In this document: one piece after another, positions 11,201 through 59,034 of the stretch
How positions within the stretch are numbered: the stretch's first letter is position 1
Layout of the letters: each line of letters opens with the position of its first letter
Source of the DNA: Mobula hypostoma
Taxonomy: Eukaryota
Reading direction: 5' to 3'
Assembly: GCF_963921235.1 (NCBI RefSeq)
Contig: NC_086097.1
Coordinates: 19,966,001 to 20,030,000 of the forward strand
Length of the DNA stretch: 64,000 nt
Translations under genes and position numbers: made by a program
The notes under the pieces: generated by a model
Told to the model about the DNA's origin: nothing
Databases searched by the model: none
What the model saw: only the letters and a program-made list of their open reading frames with translations

Positions 11201-11753
11201 ATACCCTTCCTGGACAGCACTAATCAATGCCATTCAATCCTTCCAATGTAACATGATTTAAAAAAGCAACTAGAAATCTACTGACTTCATGTCATGTAAT
11301 ATGTAAATACTAAAATGTTATGATATTCCACCCCCACCACCACTCCAACAGGAGGGGAATATTGATTACAATTTTGTTTCTATCTTCTGGTAGATACTGA
11401 GGAAGGAACTGCACCTTCCTAAGAGATACAGTCACAGGTCATCTGTTTGTATAAAGCCACTTTGCATTTGCAATTTAAGCCGCAAAAGTCATTTTTTTTC
11501 TCTAAAGCAATTTTGAACAAGACCATTCAGAAGTATGCAGCTCCCCTTCTCATCTCCTGAGACCTTAAGGGTTAACTCCACCCACATAACAATTCAGGAC
11601 TTATTGAAAGGCCATTTAATATTACTACAGATAGTGACCAGTTAAAAACCTGGTAGAATTAGAGATCACAAGCTTCTCCACTAAGCTTATGCATGATTGC
11701 TAAACTCAAAGTGGCCTTTTTTTTTTAACATAAATCTGATACAGGGCAAACTA

Positions 11754-12938
11754 TAGCAACACACACAAAATGCTGGAGGAACTCAGCAGGCCAAGCAAAA
11801 AAGTACAGTCGACATTTCCAGCCAAAACCCTTCGGCAGGACTGGAGAAAAAAAGCTGAGGATAAGGGTTTCCCTTCCTCCACCACCAACGCTGCCCTCAA
11901 TCATATCTCTTCCATTTCATGTATGCCTGCTCATGCTCCATCCTCCCGCCACGCTACCAGGGATAGGGTGCCCCTTGTCCTTACCAACCACCCCCCCCAT
12001 CCTCCACGTCCAGCAGATAATTCTCCAAAACTTCTGCCATCTACAACTGGATCCCACCACCAAACACATTTTTCCCTCCTCTCCACTTTCTGCTTTCCGC
12101 AGGGATCACTCCCTATGCGGCTCCCTTGTCTATTCGTCCTTCCCTACCTATCTCCCTCCTGGCACTTATCCTTGCAAGCAGAACAAGTGCTACACCTGCC
12201 CCTACACCTCCTCCTCACTACCATTCAGAGCCCCTAGACAGTCCTTCCAGGTGAGGCGACATTTCACCTGTAAGTCTGTTTGGTCATATACTGTATTTGG
12301 TGCTCCCAGTGTGGCCTCTTGTGTATCGATAAGACCCGATGTAGATTGGGAGACCGCTTCGCCGAGCATCTATGCTCTGTCCACCAGAACAAGTGGTATC
12401 TCCCAGTGGCCACCCATTTTAATTCCACATCCCATTCCGATATGTCCATCCATGGTCTCCTCCATTGCCGGGATATGGCCACACTTAGGTTGGAGGAACA
12501 ACATCTTATATTTTGTTTGGGTAACCTCCAACCTGATGGCATGAACATCGATTTCTCAAACTTCCAGTAATGCCTCCCCCTCCCTCATTCCCCTTGTCCC
12601 TCTCTCAAGTTATCTCCTTGCTCACCTATCGTCTCCCTCTAGTGCTCCTTCCATCCCCCACCCCTTTTTTCTTTCTTCCATGGCCTTCTGTCTCTTTTAC
12701 CAATCTACTTCCTAGTTCTTTGCTTCATCCCTTCCCCTTCAAGTTTCACCTATTGCCTGACATTTCTCTACCTTTCAAATCTACTCCTCAGCTTTTTTTT
12801 CTCCAGTCCTGCTGAAGGATTTTGGCCTGAAATGTCGACTGTACTTTTTTCCATAGATATTGCCTGGCCTGCTGAGTTCCTCCAGCATTTTGTGCGTGTT
12901 GCTCAAATTTCCGGCATCTGCAGTTTTTCTTGTTTGTG
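11754..12938 (+). mobile_element. Neptune-type PLE, 5'-truncated, with inverted terminal copy
   Basis: Frameshifted Cys linker PCKQNKCYTCPY and GIY-YIG domain VIYCIWCSQCGLLCIDKTRCRLGDRFAEH...VATHFN; inverted 3'-end copy at 11757-11860; 13-bp TSD ACAGGGCAAACTA (11741-11753, 12939-12951). Confidence 0.9.
12804..12841 (+). ncRNA. Minimal type I hammerhead ribozyme relic, A6C-variant core
   Basis: CAGTC-CTGCTGA-AGGATTTTGGCCT-GAAATGTC-GACTG; helix I CAGTC/GACTG. Confidence 0.55.
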
Positions 12939-13334
12939 ACAGGGCAAACTACGACAATTACATTTGTCATAGTTTCTAGTAATGCCTTGAAAGCCATCTT
13001 TCACATCATATACAGTGTCTTCAATAAGGAATCTATGATAAAAAGCAGAAACATTGCACTCATGAGAATACGATTGCATTTGCCCAGCTTCTGTCTTGGT
13101 CACATTTGTGGCGAAGATATAACATTCTGTATAGGTTCCTAAAATATTTCCTTCTTCCTGAACTACAGTACCCCCTTTACCACAGTCAACAGAGCCCTTG
13201 ACCACATCGCAACTCTTACCCCTTCTCCTAGAGGGGGCAGGAACACAGGTGCTTACCTTCTATCCCATCAGCCTCCACATCCAACTGATCAACTTTCACA
13301 TTTCTGCCAGCTGAACTACCAGATATACAGTAGT

Positions 13335-13710: not shown

Positions 13711-15039
13711 TTTCCTTTTCACGACATATGCCAGTGATATTAAAATGATTCTGATCCTAATTCTGTTCTATGTTCTATAATTACTAGTCAGAGGAAGAAA
13801 TTGGGTCTAGTGCTAGCTGGCCACAAGCTGGCAATAGAGAGGCAGGAAGGTTTGGTGCCAAAAAATGGAAGGTATTGCCAAAGACAAGTATCAGAGAAAG
13901 AAAGGGTTCAACTTCATCGAGTAATTTAAAGTAGAGGATAAGATTCCTAACTTCCAATTGCTCCATCTCCAGAATTCAAGGAGTTCCTCTTGTTTCTATT
14001 GGGAACCAAATGGCTAATTTCAACCCAATTTGTAGGAAAATCATTACATAAATCATAATTATGACTCCTTGCTGGGGCTCAGCAGGCACCACTTCTAATG
14101 AAAATGGAGAGATTGATGGGATGCTGCACTATATATATGTGGCACCAATGGAAATTCACAGATTATCAATTAAACATTTTAATCAACAGAAAATTAAACA
14201 GCTACTTAGCCCCTTGTCATCAAGCCAGCTGTTATTTTACAACATACAGACAGCTCATCTGATCGTTAAAGGAATGATGCTAACATTGGATTTAATAACA
14301 AACACTCAAATGTACTTAATCCATGCAAATTGGAGGCCTGATGGGCAAAAAATCAACGAGATGCTGAAACAGCATTTAAGCATTCATCTAATGATGGTTA
14401 AATACTCAATTGTTCCCCTAAATTAATAAAATATTCAGCTCCAAATGCTAAATGTAATGATACAGGCTTACTAATTTAAAATATTGTTTTTTTAAAATTG
14501 TCCAAAAAAATAACTACTTCAGTAGATTAGTGAACCTCTTTGTAATTTAATAAATAACCCAAACCTCAATTGGATCCAAAACAGTCTGTATATTAGCTTG
14601 ATGCACAAAGAAATAAGACTCAAAACTGGACTCATCCACAATATCCAAATCTCCAAGGGAAATACAGACAGAAAGGCATGTGTTTTGCCTACAGTGAAGC
14701 CATTTCCCCACAAGTTTATATATGCTGGTGAAGGGGCAAGTTAATCAGCTCAATCACGCTTAAGTAAATTAATACTTCAAACTTTTACAGTTAAGTAGCA
14801 TTATAGCACCAATGCTGCAGTATCAATTCAGAGTGCTCAAGGATAAACAAGGTAGAAGTTCAGCACCTCCCCATGCAAACACACTTCTCTTAATGAGTGT
14901 TTCATCTCATCTACTTTATAATGAGAATTTGCAATTGGAAAGAGGGAAAACTTATCACCAGACCACTTACACACTTTTAAAGCCTGTAGGGAGATTGGGA
15001 GCAAATGTAAGTGTGAAATAAAGATAATGTAACAATAAT

Positions 15040-15285
15040 ATGTAAATACAGGCAGACTTTTTCCACTGAGGTTGGGTGAGAATATAGGGGGTCTTTGAGG
15101 AAGGATGAATGGCAAAATGTTTGAGGGGAACGTGAGGTTGAACTTCTTTACTCAGAGGGTGGCAAGACTGTGAAAGTAGTGGATGCGGGTTCAATTTCAA
15201 TATTTAAGAGAAGTTCGGATAAGAACATGGATGGGAGAACATGGAGGACTATAGTCCAGGTGCAGGTTGATGGTCTAGGCAGACT
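15040..15285 (+). mobile_element. CR1 LINE 3' end
   Basis: AACTTCTTTACTCAGAGGGTGG block shared with the other CR1 copies. Confidence 0.7.
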
Positions 15286-16925
15286 GTGGCTCCTCCACAA
15301 TCACCATCAGCACAGGTGTACCAAAAGGCTGAGTGCTTAGACCTTTGCTCTACTCACCTTATACCCAAGACTGTGAAGCTAAGCACGGCTTCAGTGCCAT
15401 ATTTAAGTTTGCTGATGACACCATTGTCGACACCAAATCAGCGGTGGTAACGAATCAGCAAATAGGAGGGAGATTGAAAATCCAGCTGAGTGATGCCACA
15501 ATGAGGACCTTTCGTCAATGTCAGCACGACCAAAGAGCTGTTTATTGACTACAGAAGGAGGAAACTAGAGATCTGTGAGCCTGTCCTCATCAGGAAATCA
15601 AATGTTGGAGAGGGTCAGCAACATTAAATTCCTCAGCATTATCATTTCAGAGGATCTGTCCTTGGACTTGCACACAAGAGCCATTACAAAGAAGGCACAA
15701 CAGTTCCTCCACTTTCTTAGAAGTTCGCAAAGATTCGAAATGTCATCTAAAACTTTGACAAAAACGTCTATAGATGTGCAGTAGTGAGTATACTGCCTGG
15801 TTGTATCATTGCCTGGTATGAAAACACAAATGCCCTTGAACAGAAAAGCCTACAAAAAGTAGTGAATACAGCCCAATACATCATGGGTAAAGCCCTCCTC
15901 ATCATCCAGTACAATAAAGGTCGATAGAGTGGCTGTGGAGAGGATGTTTTTTATAGGGGGAGGGGGAAAGAGTCTAGGACCAGAGGACACAGCCTCAGAA
16001 TAGAGGGGCGTCCTTTTAGAACAGAGATGAAAAGGAATTTCTTTAGCCAGAGAGTGGTGAATCTGTGGAATCCTTTGCCACAGGCAGCTGTGGAAAGTCT
16101 TTATTTATATTTAAGGCAGAGGTTGATAGATTCTTGATTGGTTAGGGCATGAAGAGATACAGGGAGGAGGCAGAAGAGGAAAATTGGATCAGCCATGATG
16201 AAATGGCAGAGCAGACTCAATGGGCCAAATAGCCTAATTCTGCTCCTTTATCTTTTGGTTTTATCTATAAGGACATGTAGCAAGAAAACAGCATCCATCA
16301 TCAAGGACTCCCACCATTCAGGTCAAACTCTCTCCTTCTACTGCCATCAGGAAGAAGGGTAAAGGAACCTCTGGCCCCACACAACCAGGTTCAGTAACAG
16401 TTATTACCTTAGGCTCTTGAACCAGAGGGGATAACTTCCCTGAACTTCACTTACACCAACACTAAACTGTTCCCTTTCCCCTCATCCCTCATCACCTTGT
16501 GTTTCTCTCTCCCACCTTTTAAATCTACTCATCTTTTTTTCCTCCAGTCCTGCCATGCATCTCTGCCAGAAACATCGACTGCACTTTTTTTCATAGATGC
16601 TGCCAGGCTTGCTGAGTTCCGCCAGCATTTTGTGTGTGTTGCTTAGATTTCCAGCATCTGCAAATTTTTTCTTGTTTGTTACTGAATTGTTCCCACAACC
16701 TATGGACTCACTTTCAAGGCCTCTCTAACTCATGGCCTCAATATTTATTGCATATTTATTAATATTTGCATTAGCAGTTTGTTGTCTTCTATACTCTTCC
16801 TCTTTCATTGATCCTTTTTAGTCACCATTCTGTAGATTTGCTGAGTGTGCCCACAAGAGAACGTAGTTCAGGGTTGTACATGGTAACGCACATGCACTCT
16901 GATTATAAATTTTACCTTTGACTTT
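15285..16925 (+). mobile_element. Rex1/Babar LINE 3' half, interrupted by a CR1 (about 15915-16265) and a PLE end (about 16475-16680)
   Basis: LRPLLYSPYTQDC...KFADDT RT motif; ERVSNIKFL...AITKKAQQFLHFLR; tail TAAATTTTACCTTTGACTTT. Confidence 0.8.
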
Positions 16926-16939
16926 TTTTTATTATTTTG

Positions 16940-17700
16940 TCAATACAACAAATTTTTCTGAAGTGTTACTTACTCAATTTTTCTTGTTTATGATAGACCA
17001 CATGAAGCAGAACAAATATGATTTCAGACTTGTATCACATAGGAATTTGGAGAAACAAGAAATTAACTCTTATGGAATATAATGTGTTTAAATGCAAAAC
17101 AGTGCTAATGCTTTGCAATAGGTCAACTAAGCTAAAAATGTTTTGATGATTTTTGTTTGTACTCAGTGTCTGAGACTTCTTGCTTAGGTGTCCAACAACA
17201 ATCAGCCAGCATTAATGGATTCCAGTTGTCCTGATACCATTTCTTCATGACAGCAATGTCTGGTGAAACCTATCACCATTCTTGTCATCGGCAATGCCTA
17301 AATTTTCAGGGAAGTCGTCTAAATGGGAATGCAGAAAATGAATCTTTAAGTGACATGTTGCACTTCATGGTTTTGTATGCTTGAAACATGTTGTCAACCA
17401 GCTGCATGTAGTTGCCAAAATAATTTTCAACAATTTTCCATGAGACTTTCTCCATTCCCACTAGAAGTTCTTTGAATTGCCTGTCAATGAAGACCTGTTT
17501 GATTTGTGGACCAACAAAAATGCCTTCCTTAATCTTGGCATTAGTTATTCTGACACAAAGTAAGAATTGATTTAACAAAAATAGGTGAATTTTTAAAATA
17601 ATGGTGTTATAGGGAAATTTTGTAATTTTCATGATCAGCAGCCCCAAATCCATAAGATACACCCAAAAATATTCAGGAAGCAAAATCTTTGTTGTCCAGA
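16940..17700 (-). mobile_element. Internally deleted DNA transposon, probably CMC-Chapaev3
   Basis: Minus-strand AKIKEGIFVGPQIKQ, then frameshifted IHFLHSHLD and GDRFHQ-like motifs; decayed inverted ends ACAACAAATTTTTCT / AAAATCTTTGTTGTCCAG. Confidence 0.55.
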
Positions 17701-17711
17701 ATATTCAGGAT

Positions 17712-18597
17712 ACAATAGGATCTTTTAAGAGCCCCTTAGATAGGACAATGGAGTTTAGAAAAATAGAGGGTTACACACTAGGGAAGTTCTAGGCAGTTTC
17801 TACAGTAGGTTACATGGTCGGCACAGCATTGTGGGCTAAAGGGCCTGTAATGTGCTGTAGATTTCTAAGTTCAATAGGTTTCAATGAGATTCCACTTATT
17901 CTTCTAAACTCTAGCAAGTGCCGGCCCAGAGCCAAACACTCCTCATAGGTTAGCCCTTTCATTGCTGGAATCATTCTCATGAACCTCTCCAATGCCTGCA
18001 CATTTTTTTCTCTTAGATAAGGGGCACAAAACTGTTCACAATACTCCAAATGTGATCTGACCAATGCCTTATAAAGCCTCAGCATTACATCCTTGCTTTT
18101 ATACTCTAGTCCTCTCGAACTGAATGTTAACACTGCACTCCTTACCACCAACTCAACCTGTAAGCTAATCTTTAGAGAATCCAACACACAGACTCCCAAA
18201 TCCCTATGCACCTCCGATTTCTGAATGTTCTCTCCAATTAGAAGGTAGCCTAAGCCTTTACTCCTACTACCAAAGTGTATGACCCTATATCTGCCACTTC
18301 TCTGCCCATTCTCCTAATCTAAGTCCTGCAGACTCCCTGCTTCCTCAACACTATCTGCAGGTCCACCCATCTTCCCCAGAGGATGGGGAATTTGTAGAAA
18401 TCATTGCCACAGACAGTTGTGCAGGCCAAGTTATTGGGTATATTTATTTAGTTTGGAGGTTTATGAGGTCCAAAGGTGATGGGAAGGTGGCAGGAGAACG
18501 GGGATGAGGGGGATAATAAATCAGCAATGATGGAATAGCAGAGCAGGAGCAGACTTGATGGGCTGAATGGTCTAATTCTGTATGTCTTATGGTCTAA
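17712..18597. mobile_element. Cluster of three CR1 fragments (+, -, +)
   Basis: Minus-strand ORF 17810-18211 RGLEYKSKDVMLRLYKALVRSHLEYC, flanked by plus-strand CR1 3' ends. Confidence 0.75.
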
Positions 18598-18710
18598 ATC
18601 CTACAAGTTTCACTGAGAGGTACAACTCTGACATGATCTGGTCCACTTGGCTTCAGACCCAACCTCAAACTCCAAATCACTGTCTAGCTTGTACCTATCG
18701 CCTTCTAGAT

Positions 18711-18897
18711 CACACACACAAAATGCTGGTGGAACACAGCCAGCCAAACAGCATCCATAGGAAGAAGTACGGTCGACGTCTCCGCCTGAGACGTCGACTG
18801 TGCTTCTTCCTATGGATACTGTCTGGCCTGTTGCATTCCACCAATATTTTGTGTGTGCTGCTTGAATTTCCAGCATCTGCAGATTTCCTCGTGTTTA
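18711..18897. mobile_element. Hairpin mini-PLE
   Basis: Two PLE ends in inverted orientation centred on GTCGACGTCTC-CGCCT-GAGACGTCGAC; 10-bp TSD CCTTCTAGAT (18701-18710, 18898-18907). Confidence 0.85.
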
Positions 18898-18962
18898 CCT
18901 TCTAGATTAACTCCTTCCCCTCACCCCACTTTCTTAAATCAGGCATCTTCCCCGTTCCTTTC

Positions 18963-19000
18963 CAGTCCTGATGAAGGACCTCAGCCTGAAACATTGACTG
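18963..19000 (+). ncRNA. Minimal type I hammerhead ribozyme relic in a PLE end
   Basis: CAGTC-CTGATGA-AGGACCTCAGCCT-GAAACATT-GACTG. Confidence 0.6.
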
Positions 19001-20119
19001 TTTATTCATTTCCAAAGATGTCGCTTGACCTGCCAAGTTCTTTCAGAATTTTGTGTGTTGGTCTGGATTTCCAGCAACATCTCATGTTCAAACTGCTTTC
19101 ACAATTCAAGATATATAGGGATGGACAATAATCGATGTCCTTTATCAATGACATCCACACCTTATTATCCATAGATGTTCCAACCATGCAGTGTGAAATA
19201 GGAGAAAAACAGGGCAAAAAGGACACAAGATAAAAACAAACATGCTTTGGTACATCCTTGTTGCAGCAGAAGTTATCATTACAAGAAACAAAATTATTAA
19301 AATCTAAATTAGAATGAGAAGCCATACAGTAGTTAAGGTACCATCCTTTCAAAATTTCAATCAGCACATAACAGGTTAAGTAGGAATGCAGAAAAAATGC
19401 ATCACCCATTATGTAGGTAAAATGCCATTTTGAAATGTTACAGTGCGTAATCTTTACTTAATGGATTTAAAGGCCATTCTATTTGGACTGATCCCGCAGA
19501 GGACAGTACAGAGGAAAAGACAGCCCCTTCCTCTCCCTTGCCACCTGTATGTGATGTTTGTGTTCAGGATTCAATTACACCATTATTGATACCTCACAAG
19601 GATATTTAAAATGCAGACGTGGAGCCTGATTTCCCATGGGCCTGCTCATCTTTATTTCAATGCCAGCGTCCCTAGGTGAATTCCTAAGGCGTCCATATTA
19701 ATAGGCCTTCAGTCTGGATTCATTCATTAAACACTGTGCAAAGTTTATGATGCTATGATTATTAGCCGACAAGTCCTTGAATCTCAATTTACTTATGCAA
19801 ATGCAAGTTTTCTCCTTGAATTGCCTGAAAAAATACTACAGACTGATCCAGTAAACTCAGAAGCCATAAAAGAACTAAAAGGTTTTAATTTATTGCTCCA
19901 GCTAACTACTTGCAATCTGACCCAAGAAATAAAAAGCTACTATTTGCTTCTATTAAGTACTTGCATAAGAATATAAAACAAATTTGTCAGTGTGAACCAA
20001 TCATCCAGAATGTCTAAAAATTACTATGTTCAATAGTTTGGGGAATAAAGCACTTTCATTGCAAAGTAAGTATTAAGCACATATATACAACAAATATACC
20101 AGATGAATTGCACACAATA

Positions 20120-20470
20120 ATAAGATCATGAGACATAGAAGTAGAATTAGACCATTTGGCCCATTGAGTCTACTCCACTAATCCATCATGGCCGATTTAT
20201 TATCTCTCTCAACCTCATTCTCCTGCCTTTTCCCTGTAACCTTAGGTGCTCTTACTAATCAAGAATCTATCAACCTCTGCTTTAAGTATATCCAATCACT
20301 TGGCCTCCATAGCCATCACTGGCAATGAATTCCACAAATTCACCACCCTCTGGCTGCAGAAACTCCTCATCTGTTCTAATGGACGTCCCTCTATTCTGAG
20401 GCTGTGCCCTCTAATGCGAAACACCCACACTATAGGAAACATCCTTCTACATCCACTATATCTAGGCCTG
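20120..20470 (-). mobile_element. CR1 LINE 3' end
   Basis: GAATTCCACAAATTCACCACCCTCTGG block; tail ATAAGATCATGAGACATAGAAG. Confidence 0.75.
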
Positions 20471-20600
20471 AGGGGTGCAAGTGGCTACACTTCAGATCCA
20501 GTTATAAGCTACAATCTAATCAAGGAGCTTAGATGACTGCTGGAAAAGAAGCATGCCTACCTGGGAGTGATTAGAGGTGGCCTATCAATGTATCATATCT

Positions 20601-20775
20601 CAACACAAAATAATCTGCAGATGCTGGGGTCAAAGCAACACTCACAACACGCTGGAGGAACTCAGCAGGTCGGCAGCCTCCGTGGAAGCGATGAGTCGAC
20701 GTTTCGGGCCAGAACCCTTCATCCTGACGGATGCTGCCCGACCTGCTGAGTTCCTCCAGCATGTTGTGAGTGTTG
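20601..20775. mobile_element. Hairpin mini-PLE with one hammerhead remnant in the loop
   Basis: Inverted arms GCAACACTCACAACACGCTGGAGGAACTCAGCAGGTCGG / CCGACCTGCTGAGTTCCTCCAGCATGTTGTGAGTGTTGC; 15-bp TSD CAATGTATCATATCT (20586-20600, 20776-20790). Confidence 0.85.
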
Positions 20776-20965
20776 CAATGTATCATATCTATTTTGCTGT
20801 TACAATGCAACAAAGTTAATATAAAATTAAAGACCTCAACTGGGCATATAGACTCAATGCTTACTCTCCTTTTACCCCAAAGAATTACAGACTATGAAGA
20901 TCACATCAATGACTTTAAGCAGCATCATTTTTTAAATTTGCTACCGTTGGTTCTTAATGAACTCC

Positions 20966-21255
20966 CAGTATGGTAGCATATAGGCTAGTACAAAAATTTA
21001 CAATGTCAGTGATCACTGATTGGGGTTCAATTCCTATTTGTAAGAAGTTTGGACATTCTCCCTGTGATCCCATCAATTTCCTCCCACATTCCAAAGCCAT
21101 ACCAGTTAGGGTTAGTGAGCTGAGCTGTGGGTAAGCTATGTTGGCACTGGAAGGGTGATGATATTTGTGACTGCCCTCAGCAATCTTTGGACTGTGTTGG
21201 TTGTTGACACAAGCAGCATATTTCTGTTTCAATATACATGTAACAAATAAAGCTC
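20966..21255 (+). mobile_element. tRNA-derived V-domain SINE (HE1-like)
   Basis: B box GGGTTCAATTCC followed by V-domain-like GTTTGGACATTCTCCCTGTG...TTCCTCCCACATTCCAAAG. Confidence 0.6.
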
Positions 21256-21724
21256 ACCTCAAAATTAATCTTCGGGTGTAAGAATGTTCAACCATAATGG
21301 GCTTACACAACTTGTACATTTACAGCTATCATTACTCAGAAACTATACCATTATTAAAATACAATTATCTTGTACTGACTTCCAGACTTGATGGGACTGG
21401 TTTTGAAGTTTTTAGGCAACAGGACACAGATGTCACTGTCAAAGCCAACATTTAGTGTCCATCTCTATAGTTCTATCCTGCAATGAAATTGGAAGTTTTC
21501 AAGCTCACTATTACCAAGAGAGCAGTGGCGTACAACTAAATCAGCAGGGAGAAAAACGCTGATAATCAGAAACTGAGAGACAGTCAGGCAAACACTGATA
21601 TCCAGATATTCTAAGAAGCCCTCACTGCTATCACTCCAACTGCATTTAGACAGTCGATTCTTGGCAAAATTCAATGCTTCCTGGGAAGCACCGACTAAAC
21701 CTGTGTGCAGATTTAATCCTTCCA

Positions 21725-22000
21725 TTCAAGTTTCAAATTTCTAAGTACATATATGTCACCATATACAACCTCAATATTAGTTTTCTTGCAGGCCTCATTG
21801 TAAATCCAAGAAACATAATAGAATCAATGGATGACCACACCCAACAGGAAGAACAAACAACCCATAGGCAAAAGACAACAAACTGCACGTACAAAAGAAA
21901 AAAGAGCAATAAATATTGAGAACATGAAATGAAAAGTCCTTGACAGTGAGTCCATTAGGTGGTGGCAACAGTTCAGTGATGGGTGAGTGAAGTTATCACC
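21725..22000 (-). mobile_element. Rex1/Babar 3' tail
   Basis: AAGTACATATATGTCACCATATACAA is identical to the tail at 25763. Confidence 0.65.
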
Positions 22001-22059
22001 GCCGGTGTTATCAACAATCAAATATAGCATTGGAACTGCGCTTGGCCTCACAGTCATAA

Positions 22060-22990
22060 TCCCAGATCAGTGGCTTTCAGGTCTGGCAACCAAGAAAGAT
22101 ATAAGATGTCCAATTATGATCTCCAGAATGCCAGCTCACAGGTGAAGTAGCAATTCCAGACCAAACTTGAGTCACTGGGGGATGCTAGACAGCTGTGGCA
22201 GGATTTGAATACCTCTTACAACGTGAAACTAACTGACATTGGTGACATCAAGGCTTCACTCACAGATGAGCACAATGCCTTCTATGCTCACTTTGACGGT
22301 CAAAACATGGAGGAAACTTCACGAACTCCCACAGCCCCTGATGACCCTTTGATTTCAGTCTCTGGAGCTGGTGCGAGTGCATCCTTCAGGAGGGTGAATC
22401 TATGGAAAGCAGATGGCCCAGACTGGGTACCTGGCTGAGTACTGAAGACCTGTGCTGATCCCCAATATCTTTAAACTCACGCTTGAGCAGTCTGAGGTGC
22501 AAGCAAACCTGTTTCAAGCAAACTTCAATTATACTGGTGCCCAAGTGGATCATGGTAACGTGTCTCAATGTCTATCGTCCAGAAGCACTTACACCAACTG
22601 TGATGAAGTGCTTTGAGAAGTGGTGATGAAACACATCAACTCCTTCCTGAGAAGCAACTTGGGACCACTCCAATTTGCCTACCGGCACAACATGTCAATG
22701 GCAGATGCCATCTCTTTGGCCCTTCACTCAACCCTGGAGCATCTGGACAGCAAAGATGGATCCATCAGGATACTCTATACAGCTCAGCATCCAATACCAT
22801 CATCCCCTAAAAACTAATCGATAAGCTTCAAGACATTGGCCTCAAAACCTCCTTTTGCAATTGAATGCTCGAATGACTCACTTGCAGATCCCAGTAAGTT
22901 TGGATTGGCAACAACATCTGCTCCACAATCGCGATCAGTATAGGTGCGCCACAAGGCTGTGTGCTTAGCTCCCTCCTCTAATCGCTTTTC
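22060..22990 (+). mobile_element. Rex1/Babar LINE RT fragment
   Basis: RRVNLWKADGPDWVPG; PLQFAYRHNMSMADAISLALHSTLEHLD; GAPQGCVL. Confidence 0.8.
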
Positions 22991-23234
22991 TCATTCACTT
23001 CAATAATGAAGAGTGGTTCCAAAGAAGCTGAGTAAACTACTGGTAATTAAAAGGAGCTGAGTATAAACCAGCATCTGCAGACTTTCTCTTGTTTGTGAGC
23101 AAAAAGTGCTTTTCTCCCCCTACACATTTTTCCATTGCTTCATGTTTCATATGCATATTTTGTTTAAAAAAAACTTATGATAGTTAATTTTCTATTATCA
23201 AGGTTCAAAGTTCAAAGTAAATTTATTATCAAAG

Positions 23235-23356
23235 TGTAGTCACGCGCAAACATGCTACTAAAGAAACACGCAGACGCAGAGAGAGCTGAGCTCAGAATGC
23301 CCTTACTGATTCAAAATCGCGAGCTTAAATCTCCCCTCCCACGGGCCCCGGCGACC
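23235..23356 (-). repeat. Truncated 3' LTR
   Basis: Aligns to 25512-25632 with about 15 differences counted by eye, then joins directly to pol sequence. Confidence 0.85.
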
Positions 23357-24704
23357 CACCGACTCTCGGGTGCACTAGGAGGGCTGCCTTTGCCAGCACC
23401 TCCTGGGCCTGCTCGAACACCTCCGTGGACTCCGTGTCCCGTGCCACTTCTTTGGCCTTGTTGGCCATCAGGCTGAACAAGGGTCTCATGATGCGTGCCG
23501 CCGCCGGCACGAACCGATGATAAAAGTTGACCATCCCTACAAACTCCTGCAGGCCCTTGACCATGCTGGGCTTGGGGAACTGGCAGATGGCCTGGACCTT
23601 ATCCAGTAGGGGAACTGCGCCATCTCGGTTAACTTTGTGGCCCAAGAAGTCGACCTCCGTCAGCCCAAACTGGAACTTTGCCAGATTGATTGCCAGTCTG
23701 TGTTCGCTCAGGCGTTGGCAGAGCTGGCGCAAATGTGCCACGTGCTCTTGGTGCGAACTGCTGACCACCAGGATATCGTCCAAGTAAATGAAAACAAAAT
23801 CCAGGCCACGTCCCACCAAGTCCATGAGCCTTTGGAAAGTTTGGGCTGCATTCTTGAGACTGAAGGGCATCCTCAGGAATTCGAACAAGCCGAACTGGGT
23901 GATGAGTGTTGTCTTGGGCACATCGTCGGGGTGCACTGGGATCTGATGGTATCCCCTGACCAGGTCGATTTTCGAGCAGATGGTTGCTCCGTGCAGGTTC
24001 GCCGTGAAGTCCTGGATGTGGGGTACCGGGTATCTGTTGGCGGTTGTGGCATCGTTGAGCCTTCTGTAGTCTCTGCAGGGCCTCCAGCCTCCTGCGGACT
24101 TGGGCACTATGTGCAGCGGGGATGCCCACGGGCTGTCTGAGCAGCGTACGATTTCCATCTCTCCCATCTTACTGAACTTCTGCTTGGCGAGGTAGAGCTT
24201 GTCGGGTGGGAGCCTGCGAGCTCGGGCGTGCAGCGGCAGTCCTTGCGTGGGGATGTGGTGCTGCACGCCGAGCTTAGGGTCGGCCGTGGAGAACTGCGGG
24301 GTGACTATGGAGGGGAATTCCGCCAACACCCTGGCGAATTCGTTACCCGAAAGTGTCACAGATTTCAGGTGGAGGGCCGGTAGCTTGGCTTCTCCGAGCT
24401 GGAAAATCTGGATCATCTCGGCGTGGACCAAACGCCGGCCTTTTAGGTCGACCAGGAGGCAATTGGCTCGTAGGAAATCTGCCCCTAGTAGGGGCTGTGA
24501 CAACGCTGCCAACGTGAAAGTCCAAGTGAAGTGGCTGGATCCAAAATGCAGTGAGATAGTTCGCGGGCCATACGTCTGAATACTGGTGCCATTTGCAGTG
24601 GTGAGTTCGGGACCTGGGACCGTGTTACAAGTGTCCAAGTTCGGGGGGGTGGGGGGGGGGGGAGTACGCTGACTTCGGCCACGGTGTCTACCAGGAAGCA
24701 CCAC
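23325..24704 (-). CDS. Gypsy pol fragment (protease C-half plus reverse transcriptase; no RNase H or integrase)
   Basis: PLLGADFL, SPWASPLHIVPK, DYRRLN, KIDLVRGYHQIPV, MPFSLKNAAQTFQR, YLDDILV, FVGMVNFYHRF; genuine pol homology spans about 23357-24640. Confidence 0.85.
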   Translation of the reverse strand: MVLPGRHRGRSQRTPPPPTPPNLDTCNTVPGPELTTANGTSIQTYGPRTISLHFGSSHFTWTFTLAALSQPLLGADFLRANCLLVDLKGRRLVHAEMIQIFQLGEAKLPALHLKSVTLSGNEFARVLAEFPSIVTPQFSTADPKLGVQHHIPTQGLPLHARARRLPPDKLYLAKQKFSKMGEMEIVRCSDSPWASPLHIVPKSAGGWRPCRDYRRLNDATTANRYPVPHIQDFTANLHGATICSKIDLVRGYHQIPVHPDDVPKTTLITQFGLFEFLRMPFSLKNAAQTFQRLMDLVGRGLDFVFIYLDDILVVSSSHQEHVAHLRQLCQRLSEHRLAINLAKFQFGLTEVDFLGHKVNRDGAVPLLDKVQAICQFPKPSMVKGLQEFVGMVNFYHRFVPAAARIMRPLFSLMANKAKEVARDTESTEVFEQAQEVLAKAALLVHPRVGGSPGPVGGEI

Positions 24705-25456
24705 CCGGAGTGTCGGTCCCAGAGGTACAGGAGGCTATCTCGATGGCCAGCCGTCGTAGCCATTGGCAACAGCTGGCCCCGGCGTTTCCCGGAAAAGCAC
24801 ACGGTGGACGGCAGCGCCGCGCGCCTGAGCCCCATCTTTGGTGATAGAAACACCATTGCTCCGAACTTTTGTCTTTTTCCCGTGGGTCTCGACGGCTTCG
24901 GTTGTGGGGCCTGGGCTTTGGGGCACACAATCATGGCTAGGCCGATGGAGGCTGCTCCACGTTGCTTGCTCTGCCAAATGACATCTGCTTTAGCTGTGAC
25001 CCTGCGTGGGTTGCTGAAATCCTCACTCGCGAGGAGGAGGCGAATGTCCTCTGGCATTTGCTCAAGGAACAACTGTTCAAATAGAAGGCATGGCTTATGA
25101 CCATTCATGAGCGCCAGCATATCATTCATGAGCTTGGATGGCGTGCGGTCGCCCAGGCCGTCCATGTGTAGGAGCCGCGTGGCCAGTTCGCAGCGGCAGA
25201 GACTGAAGGTACGGATCAGAAGCGCCTTAAGCTTCGTGTACCCGTCCTCCGTTGGTGGCTGGCGTAGGAAGTCGATGATCCGGCCTGCCGTCTCCTGGTC
25301 GAGTGTGCTGACCACGTAGTAGTATCGCGTGGCATCGGCTGTAATGACTCTGATATTGAACTGGGCCTCAGCCTGCTCGAACCAAACGTGGGGCTGAGTG
25401 GCCCAGAAGGTCGGGAGCTTCAGAGAGACCGCGCTGTGCGAGTTGCTCGAACTCAT
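24485..25456 (-). pseudogene. Gypsy gag and protease start, frameshifted
   Basis: VSLKLPTFW...WFEQAEAQF gag signature; CHCC knuckle CFYHQRWGSGARRCRPPC in the 24688-24930 frame; protease FLVDTVAEVSVLP. Confidence 0.85.
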
Positions 25457-25495
25457 GGCTGGTCGCTGAGTCCCCAGCTCCAGAAGCCGTCTGGA

Positions 25496-25510
25496 ACGTC
25501 GGGGTTACCA
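25496..25510 (-). other. Primer-binding site complementary to the tRNA-Trp 3' end
   Basis: TGGTAACCCCGACGT one base inside the 5' LTR; one mismatch to TGGTGACCCCGACGT. Confidence 0.8.
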
Positions 25511-25511
25511 A

Positions 25512-25761
25512 TGTAGTCGCGCGCAAACGCGCTACTAAAGAAACACACGGAGGCAGAGAGAGATGAACTCAGAATGCCTTTAGTGATTCAAAATCGCACG
25601 CTTAAATCTCCCTCCCATGGGCCCCTGCGACCTGTGGGGTGGACATGATGTCAGACTATCCCCGGAAGGTCCGCCCCAAGCGGGTAGTTCCAAACGCGCT
25701 ATCGCGTGTTTGCCTGTGGCTCCCGATGGCGGTTCGAGTCCCGCGTGTGCAGGCCGCCACA
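25512..25761 (-). repeat. 5' LTR (250 bp)
   Basis: TGTGG...CTACA on the minus strand, adjacent to the primer site. Confidence 0.88.
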
Positions 25762-26550
25762 GAAGTACATATATGTCACCATATACAATTATGAGATTCA
25801 TTTTATTGCAGGCATACTCAATAACTCCATAATAGAATCAATGAAAGACTGCACCAACTTGGGCATTTAACCAGTGTGCAAATACAGAAGTAAATAATAA
25901 CAATGATAAGTAAGTAATAAATATCAAGAAATTGAGGTGAACTGTCATAGATTGTGTGAACATTTCAATGATAGGGCAAGTGAAATGAGGTGAAGTTATC
26001 CCCTCTGGTCCAAGAGCCTGACATTGAGGGATAATAACTGTTCATGAACCTGGTGCTATGAGTCTATAGGCTCCAGTACCTTCTTCCTGATGATATCAGC
26101 AAGAGGAGTGTATGACCTGGGTGGTGGGGGTCCCTGATGATGAATGCTGCTTTCCTGAGAAAGTGCTCTGTGTACATGTGCTCAGTGGTAGGGAGGGCTT
26201 TACCCACGATGAATTCAGTCATATCCACTACTTTCTGAAGGATTTTCCATTCAAGGGCATCGGTGTTTCCATACCAGGCTGTGATGCAACCAGTCAATAT
26301 TCTTTCCACCACACACCTACAGAAGTTTGTCAAAGTTTTAGATGTTATGCCAATTCTTCGCAAACTCCTAAGGAAGTACAGGCGCTGCTTCTTTGCAATT
26401 TCTTTGTAATTGCACTTGTGTGCTGGGCCCAGGACGTGTCCTGTGAAATGATAACACCGAAGAATTTAAAGTCGCTGACCCTCTCCACCTCTGACCCTCC
26501 AATGAGGACTGGCTCATGGACCTCTGGTTTCCTCCTCCTGAAGTCAATAA
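25762..26550 (-). mobile_element. Rex1/Babar LINE 3' part; its tail continues at 23200-23234 across the Gypsy insertion
   Basis: KTLTNFCRCVVERILTGCITAWYG...IIRDPHHPGH; LIIDFRR...VERVSDFKFFG. Confidence 0.85.
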
Positions 26551-26561
26551 TCAGCCAAATA

Positions 26562-28089
26562 ACACGCACACAATGCTGGAGGAACTCAGCAGGTCAGGCA
26601 GCATCAATGGAGAAGAGTAAACAGTTGATGTTTTAGGCCAAGACCCTTTGTCAGAACAAGAGGAAATTGATGAAAAGTCAGATCAAGAAGGTGGGGGGAG
26701 GGGAGGAAGAAATACAAGGTAGTAGGTGATAGGCAAAACCAGGAGGGGAGAGGGGTGAAGAAAAGAGCTGGGAAGTTGATTGGTGAAAGATGAAGGGCCC
26801 GAGAAGGGGGAATCTGTTAGGAGAGGACAGAAGGACATGGAAGAAAGGGAAGAGGGAGGAACATCAGAGGGAAGTGATGGGCTGATAAGGAGATAAGGTG
26901 AGAGGGAAATGGGAATGGTGGGGTGGGGGTCACATTACCAGAAGTTCAAGAAATCGATGTCCATACCATCAGGCTGCAGACTACCGAGACGGAATACAAG
27001 GTGTTGCTCCTCCAACCCGAATGTGGCCTCATCGTGTCAGTAGAGGAGGCCATGGACTGACATGTCAGAATGGGAATGGGAAGTGGAATTAAAATGGGTG
27101 AACACTGGAAATCCTGCTTTTTCTGGCAGATGGAGCATAGGTGCTCGGTGAAGCAGATTCCCAATCTACGTCGGGTCTCACCAATATATAGGCCACACTG
27201 GAAGCACTGCATACAGATGACCCCAACAAATTCACAGGTGAAGAGTCACCTCACCTGGAAGAACTGTTTAAGGCCCTGAATGGTAGTGAGGGAGGAAGCA
27301 TAGGGGAGGGTATAGCACTTGTTCTGCCTGCAAAGACAAGTGCCAAAAGAGAGATCAGTGGGGAGGGACGAATGAGCAAGCGAGTCATGTAGGGAGCAAT
27401 CCAATCCCTGTGTAAAGCAGAAAGTGGGAGAGGGGAGGAAAGATGTGCTTGGTGGTAGGACTGCTTCGCAAAGCACCCACGTTCCATCTGCCAGAAAGAG
27501 TGGGATCTCCCAGTGGCCACCCATTTTCATTCCACTTCCCATTTCCATTCCAACATGTCAGTCCATGGCCTCCCCTACTGCAGCAATGAGGTCACACTCA
27601 GGTTGGAGGAGCAACACCTTATATTCTGTCTGGGCAGCCTCACACTGATAGCATGAACATCGATTTCTTGAACTCCCGGGAATGGCCACTCCCCACCCCC
27701 CCCCCATCTCACCATTCCCCATTCCCACTTCCCTCTCGCCTTATCTCCTTACCTGCCCATCCCCCTTCCCTTTCTTCCATGGCCTTCTGTCCTCTCCCAT
27801 CAGAGTTCCCCTTCTACAGCCCTTTATCTCTTTCACCAATCAACTTACCTGCTCTTTACTTTATCCCTCCCCGACTTCTGGTTTCACCTATCACCTACTT
27901 CCTCTCCCCCACACCCCCCCCCCACGTTTTTAATCTGACCTCACCTTTTTTCTCCAGTTCTGATGAAAGGTCTCAACCCAAAATGTCAACTGTTCACACT
28001 TTCCATAGATGCTGCCAGGCCTGCTGAGTTCCTCCAGAATTTTGTGTGTTGCTTAGATTTCCAGAATCTGCAGATTTTTTTCTGGTTTG
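26562..28089. mobile_element. Palindromic PLE: two GIY-YIG/3'-UTR halves pointing outwards
   Basis: Minus arm 26562-27455 (CFQCGLYIGETRRRLG..FTEH), plus arm 27456-28089; 14-bp TSD TAATCAGCCAAATA / TAATCAGTCAAATA (26548-26561, 28090-28103). Confidence 0.88.
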
Positions 28090-31380: not shown

Positions 31381-32269
31381 TTGTCGGTCTCCACTGACAA
31401 TTAAAGAGGTTACATTAGTCACAGAACGAGTCACCAAGATAAATGAACTTACATGTCCAAACAGGGGACTTCACTAACATAACAGCAGTGTATTCCCTCA
31501 ATCTTGTAATGACGGACATTCAGACAGGTGATTCATTTCTAAAGAGCCTCATTAGGAAGTCAGAAACACAAATTCACAAAGAGAGATCAGGGACCTAATG
31601 AACCCATTTCAGATCAAACTGCACTCATTTCTCTATTAATCCTCTTAGCCATCAGCTTCTTTTTTAATCTGATTCTCTGCAATAAAATAAAGGATTTTTT
31701 TAATATACAACAAACTGTTAAATGCTCGTGGAGGAAAGTTAAGCAGAGTAGATAAACCCCTTCACAAACAGAAGATCCTCTTGTCATTTCATTTTGCATT
31801 CTGGATGACTTATAGTCATGAAATCTTCTCATTGACCACTGAATTTAGGTGGAGGTCAAACTCTTAAAACAGGGTACAAATCCACACAAAATAGGAATGT
31901 GGTATTCACTATGTTCAGCCTATATTAGTTTGTGAGGGGGGGGGGAAAAGAGCAACTTTTGGTGAGGGAGAGGTCTGCTACGAGTCCCAACCTGCTACAA
32001 ATTAGCAGGCAATTTGCATCAGTTCAGCATTTGCCTTGGAAATACAAGAAAAATCTAAAACTTTGCCGTGATACTCAGTACTAAGATAAGTTTCACGAAA
32101 TTGCTAGATTTACGTTGATAATACAAATTAATCTTGCTGCAGCCATTTAGTGCTGGTAATTCTAAATTGATGCAAACACGAGGAAATTTGCAGATGCTGG
32201 AAATTCAAGCAACACACACAAAATGCTGGTGGAACGCAGCAGGCCAGGCAGCATCTATAGGAAGAGGTA

Positions 32270-32307
32270 CAGTCGACGTTTCAGGCCGAGACCCTTCGTC
32301 AGGAATA
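32270..32307 (-). ncRNA. Best-preserved minimal hammerhead core in the window
   Basis: Minus strand TATTC-CTGACGA-AGGGTCTCGGCCT-GAAACGTC-GACTG; both core boxes and the GUC triplet intact, helix I weakened. Confidence 0.65.
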
Positions 32308-32427
32308 ACTGAAAGAAGAGATAGTAAGAGATTTGAAAGTGGGAGGGGGAGGGAGAGATCCAAAATGATAGGAGAAGACAGGAGGGAGAGGGTTGAAGCT
32401 AAGAGCTGGAAAGTTGATTGGCAAAAG

Positions 32428-55244: not shown

Positions 55245-55386
55245 CAACACGCATCAAAGTTGCTGGTGAATGTCGACTGTACCTCTTCCAATAGATGCTG
55301 CCTGGCCTGCTGCGTTCACCAGCAACTTTGATGTGTGTTGGTTGAATTTCCAGCATCTGCAGAATTCCTCGTGTTTGCGTTTTTAA
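55245..55386 (+). mobile_element. Mini-PLE with short inverted end
   Basis: CAACACGCATCAAAGTTGCTGGTGAA / TTCACCAGCAACTTTGATGTGTGTTG; 14-bp TSD ATTCAATGTCGATG (55231-55244, 55387-55400). Confidence 0.85.
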
Positions 55387-57637
55387 ATTCAATGTCGATG
55401 ATTGGACTCCAACCACTGTTAGTTTTTTTATTGTCAAGGTACATGATGATAATTTGTGGATATTCATAGCAGCAACAGGAATATAGTGCGATTTAAAAAT
55501 CACAATTTTTAATATAGGGCTTTCATTGCCTTTATAGCTTTAAGATTCCTTAACCCTTTACTGAGATTACCTTTGAATAAATCAGTTGAATATTCGTGAA
55601 ACTCTAAAATCATGTGGCAATAAAAATTTCTATTAAATCAACTTCCAGCCATTCCTTAATAATTGCTGTAATTATGTTCCAAACATTATTCCTTCAGTGT
55701 GAATGCTATCAGACATCAATATTGAAGGCCTTTTCCAGTCATCATTATTGCTTTTAAAATTGGACCAAAACAATTTCAATGTTATTGTAATTTTGCTTTC
55801 ATTTGACAGTTGTAAATCCTGCAAGTATTATTCTGACAATTTAGGAAATCCACAAAACAGCTCAATTAGTGTCTTGTAATCATTCCCAGGGATCCATTAT
55901 ATTCTGTATTATTATAAGTTCATGTGGATCATTATACATATTGCTCACAACGATGACAATACAACAGCTTCAATCAATCTTCAAGCAGTAGGCAGTGTCT
56001 ATTTTATAATATGCTATGACATTACATATTCTTCTTTCCTATTGCCATTCAAGATTTTTTAGTTTATAATTCTCTATTTTCTAACCAGAAGAAATACCCA
56101 AAGTGATTGCTTTTCCTATACCTTTCACATCTCCCAAATCTGCAAAAAAAAATCATACTCTTAGGGTTGCTCCAAATAAATTCTCTATAGCCAATATTCT
56201 ACAACACTCAGCTTTAGATTTGTGATATGAATCAGTCCAGTGGTATGATTCTGGGAACCACCTAAAGTCAAGAAATCATTATATGTAGACAAGTTCCCTT
56301 AAGACCAATCTTGTTCCAATGAATAGCAGCACAACTTTTACTCAATGAGGCAAAGTATGTTTGAAAAGCAGGACTTCATGCCTGGCACAAAGCTCATGCT
56401 CTACCAAGCAATACAGATCCCCATTTTTCTGTACTTCAGTGTCATGATCTACTTACAACAGGCTCCTTAAAGCACTGGAGAAATACTACCAAAAATGTCA
56501 ACACAAATTAGATTTATTGCCATTATCCTCTGTCAGGCCAATATCTTCAGCATTAAAAGGCTCAAATTACCCTCAGCCAGATCCAATGGGTAGAGTGTCT
56601 GGTTTGAGACATTCATCCTTTGCATCTCTCAAACCTTCTTTAATAAAATTGAAGAAATCATTGATTCCTGGGAAACCATGGCTTTTGAGTGACAAAAGTG
56701 AAGGATGAGTAACCAGAAGGACTCTGAAAACCTCAAGTCACTTCAACAGGAAAATGTGCAATCCAAGTGGAAGAGGTGCAGCAGCTCCCAACTCTACAGG
56801 CACCACCTATGCTACAGAAATTGTCCAAGAAGGATAAGACAACAAGAACACTGTTTCAACCACAGCTCATATTCTGACCCAATTGTTATAATTATTGAAT
56901 ATGGAAGTTATATTTTGCTGCTACTATGGCTTTTTGGATATCATTTCAAGGTCTATATACTTCGACTGTATGCACTACATCCAACAGGTTTCAAAGAGCG
57001 GGCCTTAATGTTTATATTTTCCTCACATCATAACTAAGCATAGATCACAAAGCTATTTGTATTCACAATGACCATCTCAATTTATGCCATATCATGCTTA
57101 AGCCAGTGAAGGTGGATGATGGGAACTCTCTAATCATCACTATAGGTCCTCTCCAGGTTACTATAGAGAGCCTATATAAACAAATGTGCATTTGGAAGAC
57201 CAATGAGATGGATTTTCTCGCTGTTGCAAGGCTGCTGGCATCTTCTACCCCCTGGATAGATGGCTGCATTTATAACCTATAAACAGCTGGGTTACGAACA
57301 GTTCACGAGAGAATTCATTTAAAAGAGAAATCAGGAGGGCTATTTAAGGGCATGAGGTTGCTCTGGCAAGCAAGATGAAAGAATTCAAATAATTTCTATA
57401 GCTATAGTAAGAGTAAATGGATAACAAGGGAATCCTCTTGAAGATCAGTGTGGTCACCTATGCATGGAGCTGAAACAGATAGGGGAGATTTTAAATGATT
57501 TTTTTGCATCCATATTTATTCAGGATACAGAGACTACAGAATGGAGGCAAAAGGGTAGTGAGGTCATGGACTGTATCCAGATTACTGAACAAGTGGCATT
57601 TGCTGTCTTGAGGTGAATTAGGTGCATAAATCACCAG

Positions 57638-58615
57638 CAACACACACAAAAGGCTGGAGGAACTCAGCAGGCCAGGCAGCATCCATAATAAAAAGTACAG
57701 TCAACATTTCGGGCTGAGACCCTTTGGCAGGACTGGAAAAAAAAAAGATGAGTAGATTTAAAAGGAGGGAGAGGGGAAAAAGAAACATAAGGTGATAGGT
57801 GAAACTGGGAGGGGGGATGAAGTGAAGAGCAGGGAAGTTGATTAGTGATAGAGATACAGGGCTGGAGAAGGGGGAGTCTGACATGAGAACAAGAGGCGAC
57901 ACTTCACCAGTGAGTCTGTGGGGTCATCCACTGTTACCGGTGCTCTCGGTGTGGCCTCCTGTATATCTGTGAGACACGTCATAGATTGGGAGACTGTTTC
58001 TCCGAGCACCTACACTCCGTCCGCCAGAAGAAGCAGGATCTCCCAGTGGCCACCTAATATAATTCCACTTCCCATTCCAATACGTCAATCCACAGCCTCC
58101 TCTACTGTCTCGATGAGGCCACACTCAGGATGGAGGAACAACACCTTATATTCATCTGGGTAGCCTCCAATCTGATAGCATGAACATGGATTTCTCAAAT
58201 TTCTGGTACTGGCAACCTCCCCCACCCATCTCCTTAATCCCCTTTTCCCTCTCCCTCCTTGCCGACCCATCACCTCACTCTCGTGCTCCTCCCTTTTCTT
58301 TCTTCCACGGCCTTCTGTTCTCTCTTGTCGGACTCCCCCTTCTCCAACCGTGTATCTCTTCCACCAATCAACTTCCTAGCTCTTTATTCATCCATCCCCT
58401 TCCCGGTTTCACCTATCACCTTGCATTTCTTTCTCCCCTCTCCCAGCTTCTAAATCTACACATCTTTTTTTCCCTTAGTCCTGCTGAAGGGTCTCCACCC
58501 AAAATGCTGACTGTACTTTTTTTTCCCCCCATTGTTACTGCCCGGCCTGCTGAGTTCCTCCAGCATTTTGTGTGTGTTGCTCGGATTTCCAGCATCTGCA
58601 GATTTTTTCTTGATT
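57638..58615 (+). mobile_element. PLE (GIY-YIG relic) with about 250-bp inverted terminal copy, inserted in a CR1
   Basis: 16-bp TSD GTGCATAAATCACCAG / GTGCGTAAATCACCAG (57622-57637, 58616-58631); MNMDFSNF ORF end. Confidence 0.88.
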
Positions 58616-59034
58616 GTGCGTAAATCACCAGGGCTTGGTGAAGTGTCCTCTCACATCTTGCATGAAACTGAGGGGTTGGGGGGGGGGGGGAAGGTGGGGT
58701 GTGCTGTAGCAGACAGCAAGGAAGGCCATCACAGCTTGCGAAGAGATCTCTGGACCAACTGGGAATACAGGCTGAAAAATGGCAAATGAAATTTAGTGCA
58801 GACCAGTGTGAGATGTTGCACTTCGGGAAGGCAAACAAGAGTAAGCCTTACAGTGAATGTTAGAGCTCTGAGGCATGCAGCAGAAAAGGACTTCAAGGAA
58901 CCTGGGATAGATCTTTAAAATGTCCTTAGTCACAGGTGAGATCCTGGAGGACTAGAGTATAGTTAATGTTGTTCTATCGTTTAAAAAAAGGCTTTAAACA
59001 TAAGCCAAGAAATTATAGGCCGACGAAATTATAC

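Follow-up and report, generated by a model that had tools for sequence, protein, structure and literature searches.

A Penelope-like element subfamily of a ray genome amplified with an A6C change in its minimal hammerhead motif

Introduction

Five hammerhead motifs in a 64-kb stretch of the 3.48-Gb genome of the ray Mobula hypostoma (hereafter the window) have the core CTGC, with a C at position 6 (C6), in place of the CTGA of A6 motifs. In an earlier note on this DNA they were attributed to a Penelope-like element (PLE) that had amplified with this A6C change, which raises the question of whether a retroelement spread with a functional variant ribozyme or by cleavage-independent retrotransposition. 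Hammerhead numbering and the splice-site consensus follow common usage. The core numbering agrees with PMC7151607 and PMC4209133.

The A6C substitution is otherwise known from one phage and an engineered mutant. The phage case, Bcep176, which the earlier note had mentioned as an A6C hammerhead with Mn2+-favoured cleavage, is indeed so described (PMC7151607, PMC3088659), with rates of 0.004 per min at 1 mM Mg2+ and 0.3 at 1 mM Mn2+ for the natural C6 motif (PMC7151607). For a mouse-gut hammerhead, the kobs at 0.3 mM Mg2+ was 0.3 per min with A6 and 3.55e-6 with A6C, the mutant keeping 0.18 in Mn2+ (PMC7151607), and A6C lowered Mg2+ cleavage sharply in both ribozymes of Naghdi 2020 (PMC7151607). 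One or two hydrogen bonds are expected to be lost with the substitution (PMC3088659). A literature search that left Lunse et al. 2017 and most subscription papers outside its scope found no A6C hammerhead reported from a PLE or from any other eukaryotic source.

C6 insertions in the window

All five CTGC cores were found at the positions given in the note, and they fall into three insertions, as had been proposed, two of which are bounded by target-site duplications. All three belong to a single PLE subfamily. Insertion 1 (11754-12938) combines an inverted end with a direct fragment and is framed by two identical copies of a 13-bp target-site duplication (11741..11753 and 12939..12951, + strand). 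The inverted 3'-end fragment (11754..11861, - strand; 84% to the C6 family profile) contains the end of the 3' UTR, the hammerhead and part of the tail, and its minimal type I hammerhead (11806..11843, - strand) has the core CUGCCGA, with C6 at 11835. A decayed 3' part of the PLE ORF follows (11860..12570, + strand), comprising the end of the RT region and a GIY-YIG endonuclease, interrupted by frameshifts and stops. This remnant is 56-71% identical to Hypanus and Leucoraja proteins, and the residues from 12274-12570 exhibit 79% identity to the M. hypostoma protein P0001. The GIY-YIG match of P0001 (E=0.0005, 20.9 bits) falls slightly short of the Pfam cut-off of 22.6, and the ORF copy of insertion 1 itself gave no Pfam match. 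The pyrimidine-rich 3' UTR, or pseudo-LTR (12571..12803, + strand), runs into a T-tract and CAG, the AG of which falls within the 5' strand of helix I. The second minimal type I hammerhead (12804..12841, + strand) has the core CUGCUGA, with C6 at 12812, C7 lost by CpG decay and a predicted cut after C17 at 12836. It is followed by the PLE tail 3' of the cut site (12842..12938, + strand), whose end is where insertions of the C6 family end: the same tail end, then unrelated DNA, was found at most of the 30 loci listed. A contig of sequencing run X9 (organism C) covers window positions 12916-13100 with 4 differences; since only about 24 letters lie inside the element, the contig gives no more than slight reason to regard insertion 1 as shared between species.

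Insertion 2 is a short 5'-truncated C6-subfamily end (16491..16682, + strand), at which a target-site duplication was looked for and none was found. Its hammerhead (16545-16581), with C6 at 16553, has the core CTGCCA with a loss of 1 nt and a decayed helix II. Insertion 3 (57636-58620) again associates an inverted end and a direct fragment, with identical flanks forming an 11-bp target-site duplication (57627-57637 and 58621-58631). The inverted fragment (57636..57862, - strand) carries a hammerhead at 57698-57735 with the core CUGCCAA and C6 at 57727. The direct fragment (57893..58620, + strand), which belongs to C6 group beta (see below), consists of an endonuclease remnant, the 3' UTR, a hammerhead (58476-58513, + strand; core CTGCTGA, C6 at 58484) and the tail.

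Unbiased sampling of the genome consisted of the window and 200 kb from two contigs, in which a profile collected 24 and 50 element ends, respectively. The 19 aligned ends of the window comprise 11 with A at position 6, five with C, one each with G and T, and one in which the position is missing; among 33 ends of the 200-kb sample, 30 have A, one has C and one G, the remaining end being a partly deleted one of the C6 family. The window is unusually rich in C6 compared with these 200 kb from other places, where one or two C6 insertions are compatible, within wide limits, with the genome-wide estimate given below.

C6 as a subfamily trait

Pattern counts were made over the whole genome, position 6 being left free in marker-defined patterns and letters being tallied by eye from 100 matches listed. 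Linkage of C6 to subfamily markers, which the earlier note had proposed as a check, was clear for two upstream sequences. Marker i gave 1,718 matches (C 96, T 3 and A 1 among the 100 listed) and marker ii 171 matches (C 92, A 4 and T 4 among the 100 listed), against a background of about 1%: in the dominant ACTGTACCT family, 1,124 matches were non-A (C38/G30/T32 among the 100 listed), each letter representing about 1% relative to an estimated 33,000 or so A6 matches. Random decay of A would give G more often than C. On one scaffold, pattern matches numbered 20,420 for A6, 8,994 for C6 and 1,279 for G6, a C:G ratio of 7 to 1. Scattered mutation as the source of C6 is ruled out by this ratio and by the 92-96% linkage, and such subfamily-wide linkage upholds the claim that A6C is older than the amplification.

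The exact 34-nt C6 hammerhead occurs 148 times genome-wide (0 times for the reversed-pattern control), and a rough, divergence-corrected estimate gives about 15,000-27,000 C6 motifs in the genome. Two upstream markers and two loop states occur among C6 copies genome-wide. The 29 best other genomic matches to the window copy, picked by likeness, are nearly all C6. At positions 6-8, the marker-i matches listed read CCG in 30, CTG in 40, CCA in 25 and CTA in one (tallied by eye; p=0.08 for CTG versus CCA), which fits the ancestral CTGCCGA followed by CpG decay that the earlier note had postulated. Two of its details have to be revised. Taken by itself, the short downstream marker ACTGTACTY does not identify the subfamily (54 C, 43 A and 3 G among 100 matches listed), and CTGATGA...ACTGTTTATTC is not the main A6 family, the most abundant and youngest being CTGACGA...ACTGYACCTCTTCC.

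Origin and history of the C6 lineage

Sequence comparisons point to a single origin of A6C, in an ancestor with the core CUGACGA, as the most likely history. The C6 and young A6 (CUGACGA) families have 15 derived sites in common relative to older families. Both have C7, whereas old CCAG-type A6 copies are nearly all T7, so that the change can be read as CUGACGA to CUGCCGA. Two C6 groups, alpha and beta (13 copies each), are united against young A6 and outgroups by 7 of 502 scored sites (position 6 and six others), and the sites that would nest young A6 inside these groups number 1 and 0 of the 502. With position 6 removed, the best tree keeps C6 together and nested trees give AU p=0.27 and 0.09; the AU test prefers C6 monophyly without proving it. 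A reversion from C6 to A6 yielding the young family, at which one unresolved fork had hinted, was rejected on the site patterns (7 to 1 to 0), although the AU test does not formally exclude it. Measured at non-CpG sites, copies diverge from their family majority by 8.7% in C6 (n=26, a set biased to close matches), 3.3% in young A6 (n=8) and 15.6% in old A6 (n=5, a small set).

Groups alpha and beta differ at 11 of 248 UTR sites, with 0 differences in the 38 nt of the hammerhead, and the alpha group (support 100/96) seems to derive from a beta-like master. The two groups, the two markers and the two loop states imply that the lineage spanned more than one master. By its sequences, the C6 lineage is extinct, having passed through at least two masters before it stopped. 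Its A6 sister, with 53 private changes, has become the largest family, roughly estimated at about 100,000 motifs; the halt of C6 and the success of this sister fit either ordinary lineage turnover or a benefit of the intact ribozyme that was real without being essential.

Examples of the young A6 family lie at window positions 32173-32345 (- strand) and at L032:7921-10000. The first pair of its helix I is U-G, and its core is predicted to pair with the cut site at a probability of 0.99, which suggests that monomers of this most successful family may fold into an 'off' state. At L041:1297-1485, an inverted pair of C6-like ends was found whose tails, unlike those of other copies, have several T-to-C changes creating CpGs.

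Coding capacity and PLE class

The 26 C6 copies yield a majority sequence with 367 recoverable codons and no stop among them, and its translation exhibits the GIY-YIG motifs VIY...YIGET.RR...RF.EH...E.HLI at the ORF C-terminus, where the PLE class has its C-terminal endonuclease. RT sequence upstream in the same ORF, a further PLE feature, was found in C6 copy L051, the RT remnant of which is colinear with RT-bearing ray proteins (P0003 residues 1-449) save for one inserted element. Copies are 5'-truncated, with inverted ends and a tail, as in other PLEs. Among the loci collected, no full-length or tandem C6 element was found, the longest retaining about 2.1 kb of element. Non-LTR retrozymes are defined as short non-coding tandem repeats, each with a hammerhead (10.64898/2026.07.22.740005); the C6 copies are dispersed and joined to ORF remnants, and do not fall in this category. 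A different repeat of about 780 bp, with related copies in L040, L042 and L045, lies inside the endonuclease region at L051:557-1341. PLE RT/endonuclease sequence is also present in the public ray and skate protein models P0003 and P0005, under host-gene or uncharacterised names.

Variants in the last 367 codons were compared among 24 of the 26 C6 copies, two same-insertion partners being dropped. Non-CpG variants found in at least three of the 24 copies comprise 27 synonymous and 19 non-synonymous changes, against 136 and 344, respectively, among private variants (p=8e-5). For variants seen twice (40 synonymous, 71 non-synonymous), the bias is not significant (p=0.13). The alpha and beta ORFs differ by six synonymous and six non-synonymous changes at 640 sites, five of the latter being in CpG context or thinly covered; the contrast gives p=0.003 without those five sites and p=0.09 with all 12. 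Between the C6 and young A6 families, dN/dS is 0.11-0.14, over an interval that includes time before A6C. Taken together, the synonymous bias of shared variants, the alpha-beta contrast and the dN/dS make purifying selection on the ORF end likely while C6 was carried, and the C6 lineage likely coded for its own protein.

The C6 motif as a core variant of the minimal hammerhead

The C6 motif is composed of helix I (CAGUC/GACUG), the core, an extra A and a 4-bp helix II with a 4-nt loop, followed by GAAA, the palindrome ACGU and GUC at the predicted cut site. The 38-mer is predicted to fold with a 5-bp helix I and a 4-bp helix II. Helix I, helix II with G10.1-C11.1, the extra base after A9, GAAA, the palindromic 15.1-16.1 and an NUH cut triplet are all present (GAAACGUC in the family majority). 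Only the CUGANGA core departs from the minimal motif, position 6 being C in 92-96 of 100 marker-defined matches listed, and the motif, with all other minimal-hammerhead features kept, was classed as a core variant. Other core positions are unchanged in the sampled C6 masters, in a comparison of low power among copies picked by likeness to the window region.

This architecture closely resembles that of the minimal hammerheads of metazoan PLEs (Cervera and De la Pena 2014, PMC4209133), with which it has in common the pseudo-LTR site after an RT/GIY-YIG ORF, a short helix I, an extra base after A9, G10.1-C11.1, a palindromic 15.2-16.2, the absence of loop 3 and dispersed 5'-truncated copies with inverted pairs. 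In the accessible portions of that paper, the consensus is CUGANGAH with A6 in the representatives, whereas here C6 characterizes a whole amplified subfamily; the core variant described there is U3-A8, not A6C. As its catalytic boxes are fixed, the descriptor used would have missed A6C, and more generally, searches with fixed CUGA descriptors overlook whole hammerhead families. Rfam gave no hammerhead match in the window, in a near-intact C6 copy or in a perfect A6 copy; since even the latter had no match, these models appear to miss the minimal form.

Several other features of the motif were considered. Decay of helix II from GGG to GGA, present in both C6 groups, was rejected as a change fixed in C6 masters, with about 11 of 100 C6 lines and about 13 of 100 A6 lines listed showing it. 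A conserved frame through the hammerhead and tail was rejected since spacing differs between families, and a protein search with this frame, a weak search, gave no candidate. A T/C tract and YAG end exactly in the 5' strand of helix I (window 12785-12806, and all three family majorities) and resemble the end of the intron in Penelope of Drosophila virilis (PMC4209133). On its own, the T/C tract is weak evidence, as the whole UTR is 82% pyrimidine, and no GT..AG ends indicating splicing at the helix I CAG were found among 15 joints listed of 818.

Probable insertion across an uncut hammerhead

In the window and the 200-kb sample, 63 of 74 element ends, all families included, span the cut site. 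Nine of the other 11 start more than 2 nt downstream, one ends before the site, and one weak old match starts within 2 nt. The presence of tail and body in one insertion implies that the template RNA was uncut at the motif, or religated. A similar situation is documented for the Anolis Poseidon element PAc (Frangieh 2024, PMC11167929), which, like the C6 element, is a PLE with a C-terminal endonuclease, has a tail of about 100 nt behind its hammerhead and gives no indication of ends at the cut site. For PAc, catalytically dead hammerhead RNA inserts as well as wild type in vitro, unprocessed RNA is the main insertion substrate, reverse transcription begins in the tail, and RNA-seq shows no reads terminating at the cut site (PMC11167929). 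PAc differs in its canonical core, and its dispensability of cleavage comes from engineered mutants in vitro, whereas here a natural core mutant was amplified in the germ line; the PAc ORF starts at stem II (PMC11167929), a start that was not located in the C6 element. Naiad and Chlamys PLEs (10.1101/2021.04.23.441226) likewise proliferate without a canonical hammerhead, Naiad PLEs thriving without any, but these have an N-terminal endonuclease and no motif, in contrast to the C-terminal endonuclease and the motif with one core change of the C6 PLE. The role of the hammerhead in endonuclease-bearing PLEs has been described as unclear (10.1101/2021.04.23.441226).

We regard it as probable, if well short of certain, that a weakened ribozyme was tolerated since insertion copies uncut RNA. 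A master of a protein-coding PLE lineage would have gained A6C in its minimal hammerhead and then amplified. By analogy, the change would have left a strongly weakened ribozyme in cellular Mg2+, the step from the Mg2+ rates of other ribozymes to the C6 motif being one that we infer. Reverse transcription would start in the tail 3' of the cut site and read through the uncut hammerhead into the body, and since copying must pass an uncut hammerhead, cutting at the motif would not be required for insertion. The copies are now dead, those of the window being remnants of the C6 lineage. Of the two options that the earlier note had left, retrotransposition independent of cleavage, or nearly so, thus fits better, given the ends that span the cut site and the insertion of hammerhead-dead PAc RNA (PMC11167929), and is less surprising than had been supposed; a functional variant ribozyme is the less likely of the two.

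Published work already makes the independence of PLEs from their ribozyme likely. Many thousands of C6 copies with a ribozyme-crippling change suggest in addition that full self-cutting is dispensable for PLE spread: a canonical PLE with its own selected ORF reached some 10^4 copies despite A6C. The C6 subfamily would represent a natural germ-line experiment on a dispensability otherwise shown, in the literature available, only in vitro (PMC11167929), and with an A6/C6 pair one base apart available from sister lineages, the need for the ribozyme becomes directly testable.

Junctions between copies were considered as a possible footprint left by templates that had been cut. Counted by eye, 48 of 100 lines listed (381 matches) for young A6 and 9 of 59 for a C6-enriched marker were head-to-head junctions with the cut site at their centre. 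Relative to other junctions, the two families differ (p=0.02); per estimated copy, they are alike (0.35% for young A6 versus 0.28-0.50% for C6), and no excess of cut-site junctions attributable to A6 was found. Because the GTCGAC palindrome provides microhomology in both families, such junctions say nothing on activity and were not taken as a footprint. Perfect head-to-head insertions at GTCGAC, such as G000:C1:10834969-10835008, occur at 31 loci among 100 of the 381 young A6 matches listed and, like the nine of the C6-enriched marker, are probably microhomology-driven inversions. Inversions or template switches from one strand of helix I to the other make up about 8 of the 59 junctions of the C6 marker.

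Alternative explanations

The C6 motif could instead be a working variant, whose slow cleavage, helped by protein or Mn2+ and by the opening of a mispaired core, suffices, for instance, for trimming tandem transcripts. We consider this rather unlikely. The motif retains helix I, helix II, GAAA, the ACGU palindrome and GUC, and it matches the young A6 family at 33-34 of 38 nt, compared with 157-161 of 248 UTR sites; most of this conservation, however, accrued on A6 branches. In folding models, the probability of pairing between G5-A6-N7-G8 and the cut-site strand drops from 0.95-0.99 in A6 monomers to 0.09-0.16 in C6, but A6C also lets the 3' side of helix II form a new hairpin, which competes with that helix (helix II probability 0.74, and 0.43 with a UUCG loop). 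The freed core could offset the A6C loss, net activity being unreadable from such models. The idea that the loop change from CUCG to UUCG was selected for stabilising the new hairpin was rejected, as this change ranks only 34 of 114 single changes.

Bcep176 C6 is active, best in Mn2+ (PMC7151607), and cleavage of the PAc hammerhead needs protein (PMC11167929). Against this, cells typically contain orders of magnitude less Mn2+ than Mg2+ (PMC7151607). In vitro, even canonical PLE hammerheads cleave slowly (PMC4209133). As Bcep176 C6 still cuts, and PLE hammerheads are slow and protein-assisted, the loss of activity may be smaller in context. Bcep176 (Perreault 2011, PMC3088659; Naghdi 2020, PMC7151607) has the same A6C substitution in a single phage intergenic motif with assayed activity, whereas the C6 motif is a minimal dimer-type retroelement motif in about 10^4 copies, read here from sequence only. 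The extinction of the C6 lineage and the lack of any genomic trace of cut templates seen in either family also count against a working variant. The stricter proposal that the motif is a retuned ribozyme, freed by A6C from a mispairing between core and cut site in the CUGACGA ancestor and cutting only with the element protein or in raised Mn2+, appears quite improbable to us; if true, a vertebrate retroelement would have switched to metal- or protein-gated RNA processing and spread with it.

Rescue in trans, in which the A6 core of a co-expressed sister would cut C6 RNA in a mixed dimer, the element using its own protein and a borrowed ribozyme, is in our view very unlikely. Minimal motifs of the PLE type are thought to act as dimers, and A6 families both older and younger than C6 exist. 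With the substrate strand, helix I and palindrome being the same in C6 and older A6 families, the modelled energy of a mixed active dimer equals that of the homodimer. Nevertheless, two separate transcripts would have to meet, as tandem copies on one transcript would both be C6, and in the models every variant has a best dimer fold that is more stable than the active dimer by 8-17 kcal/mol.

Least credible of all is that C6 copies stem from scattered mutation, excluded by the linkage and C:G ratio above, or from a non-autonomous or briefly lucky defective master, which would be uninformative on the need for a ribozyme: the family is extinct, no full-length copy occurs among the collected loci and the ORF test covers 24 copies and the last 367 codons, but a passive passenger fits poorly with the open frame, the synonymous bias and the succession of two masters.

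Other features of the window

G+C content reaches 48-56% at window positions 22000-28000, against about 40% in the rest of the window, and this stretch is possibly a CpG island or a GC-rich repeat. Short inverted pairs of PLE ends were also observed at 18700-18900, 20600-20780, 34690-34930 and 55245-55380, and some short inverted PLE end pairs give spurious low-score microRNA-type Rfam matches.
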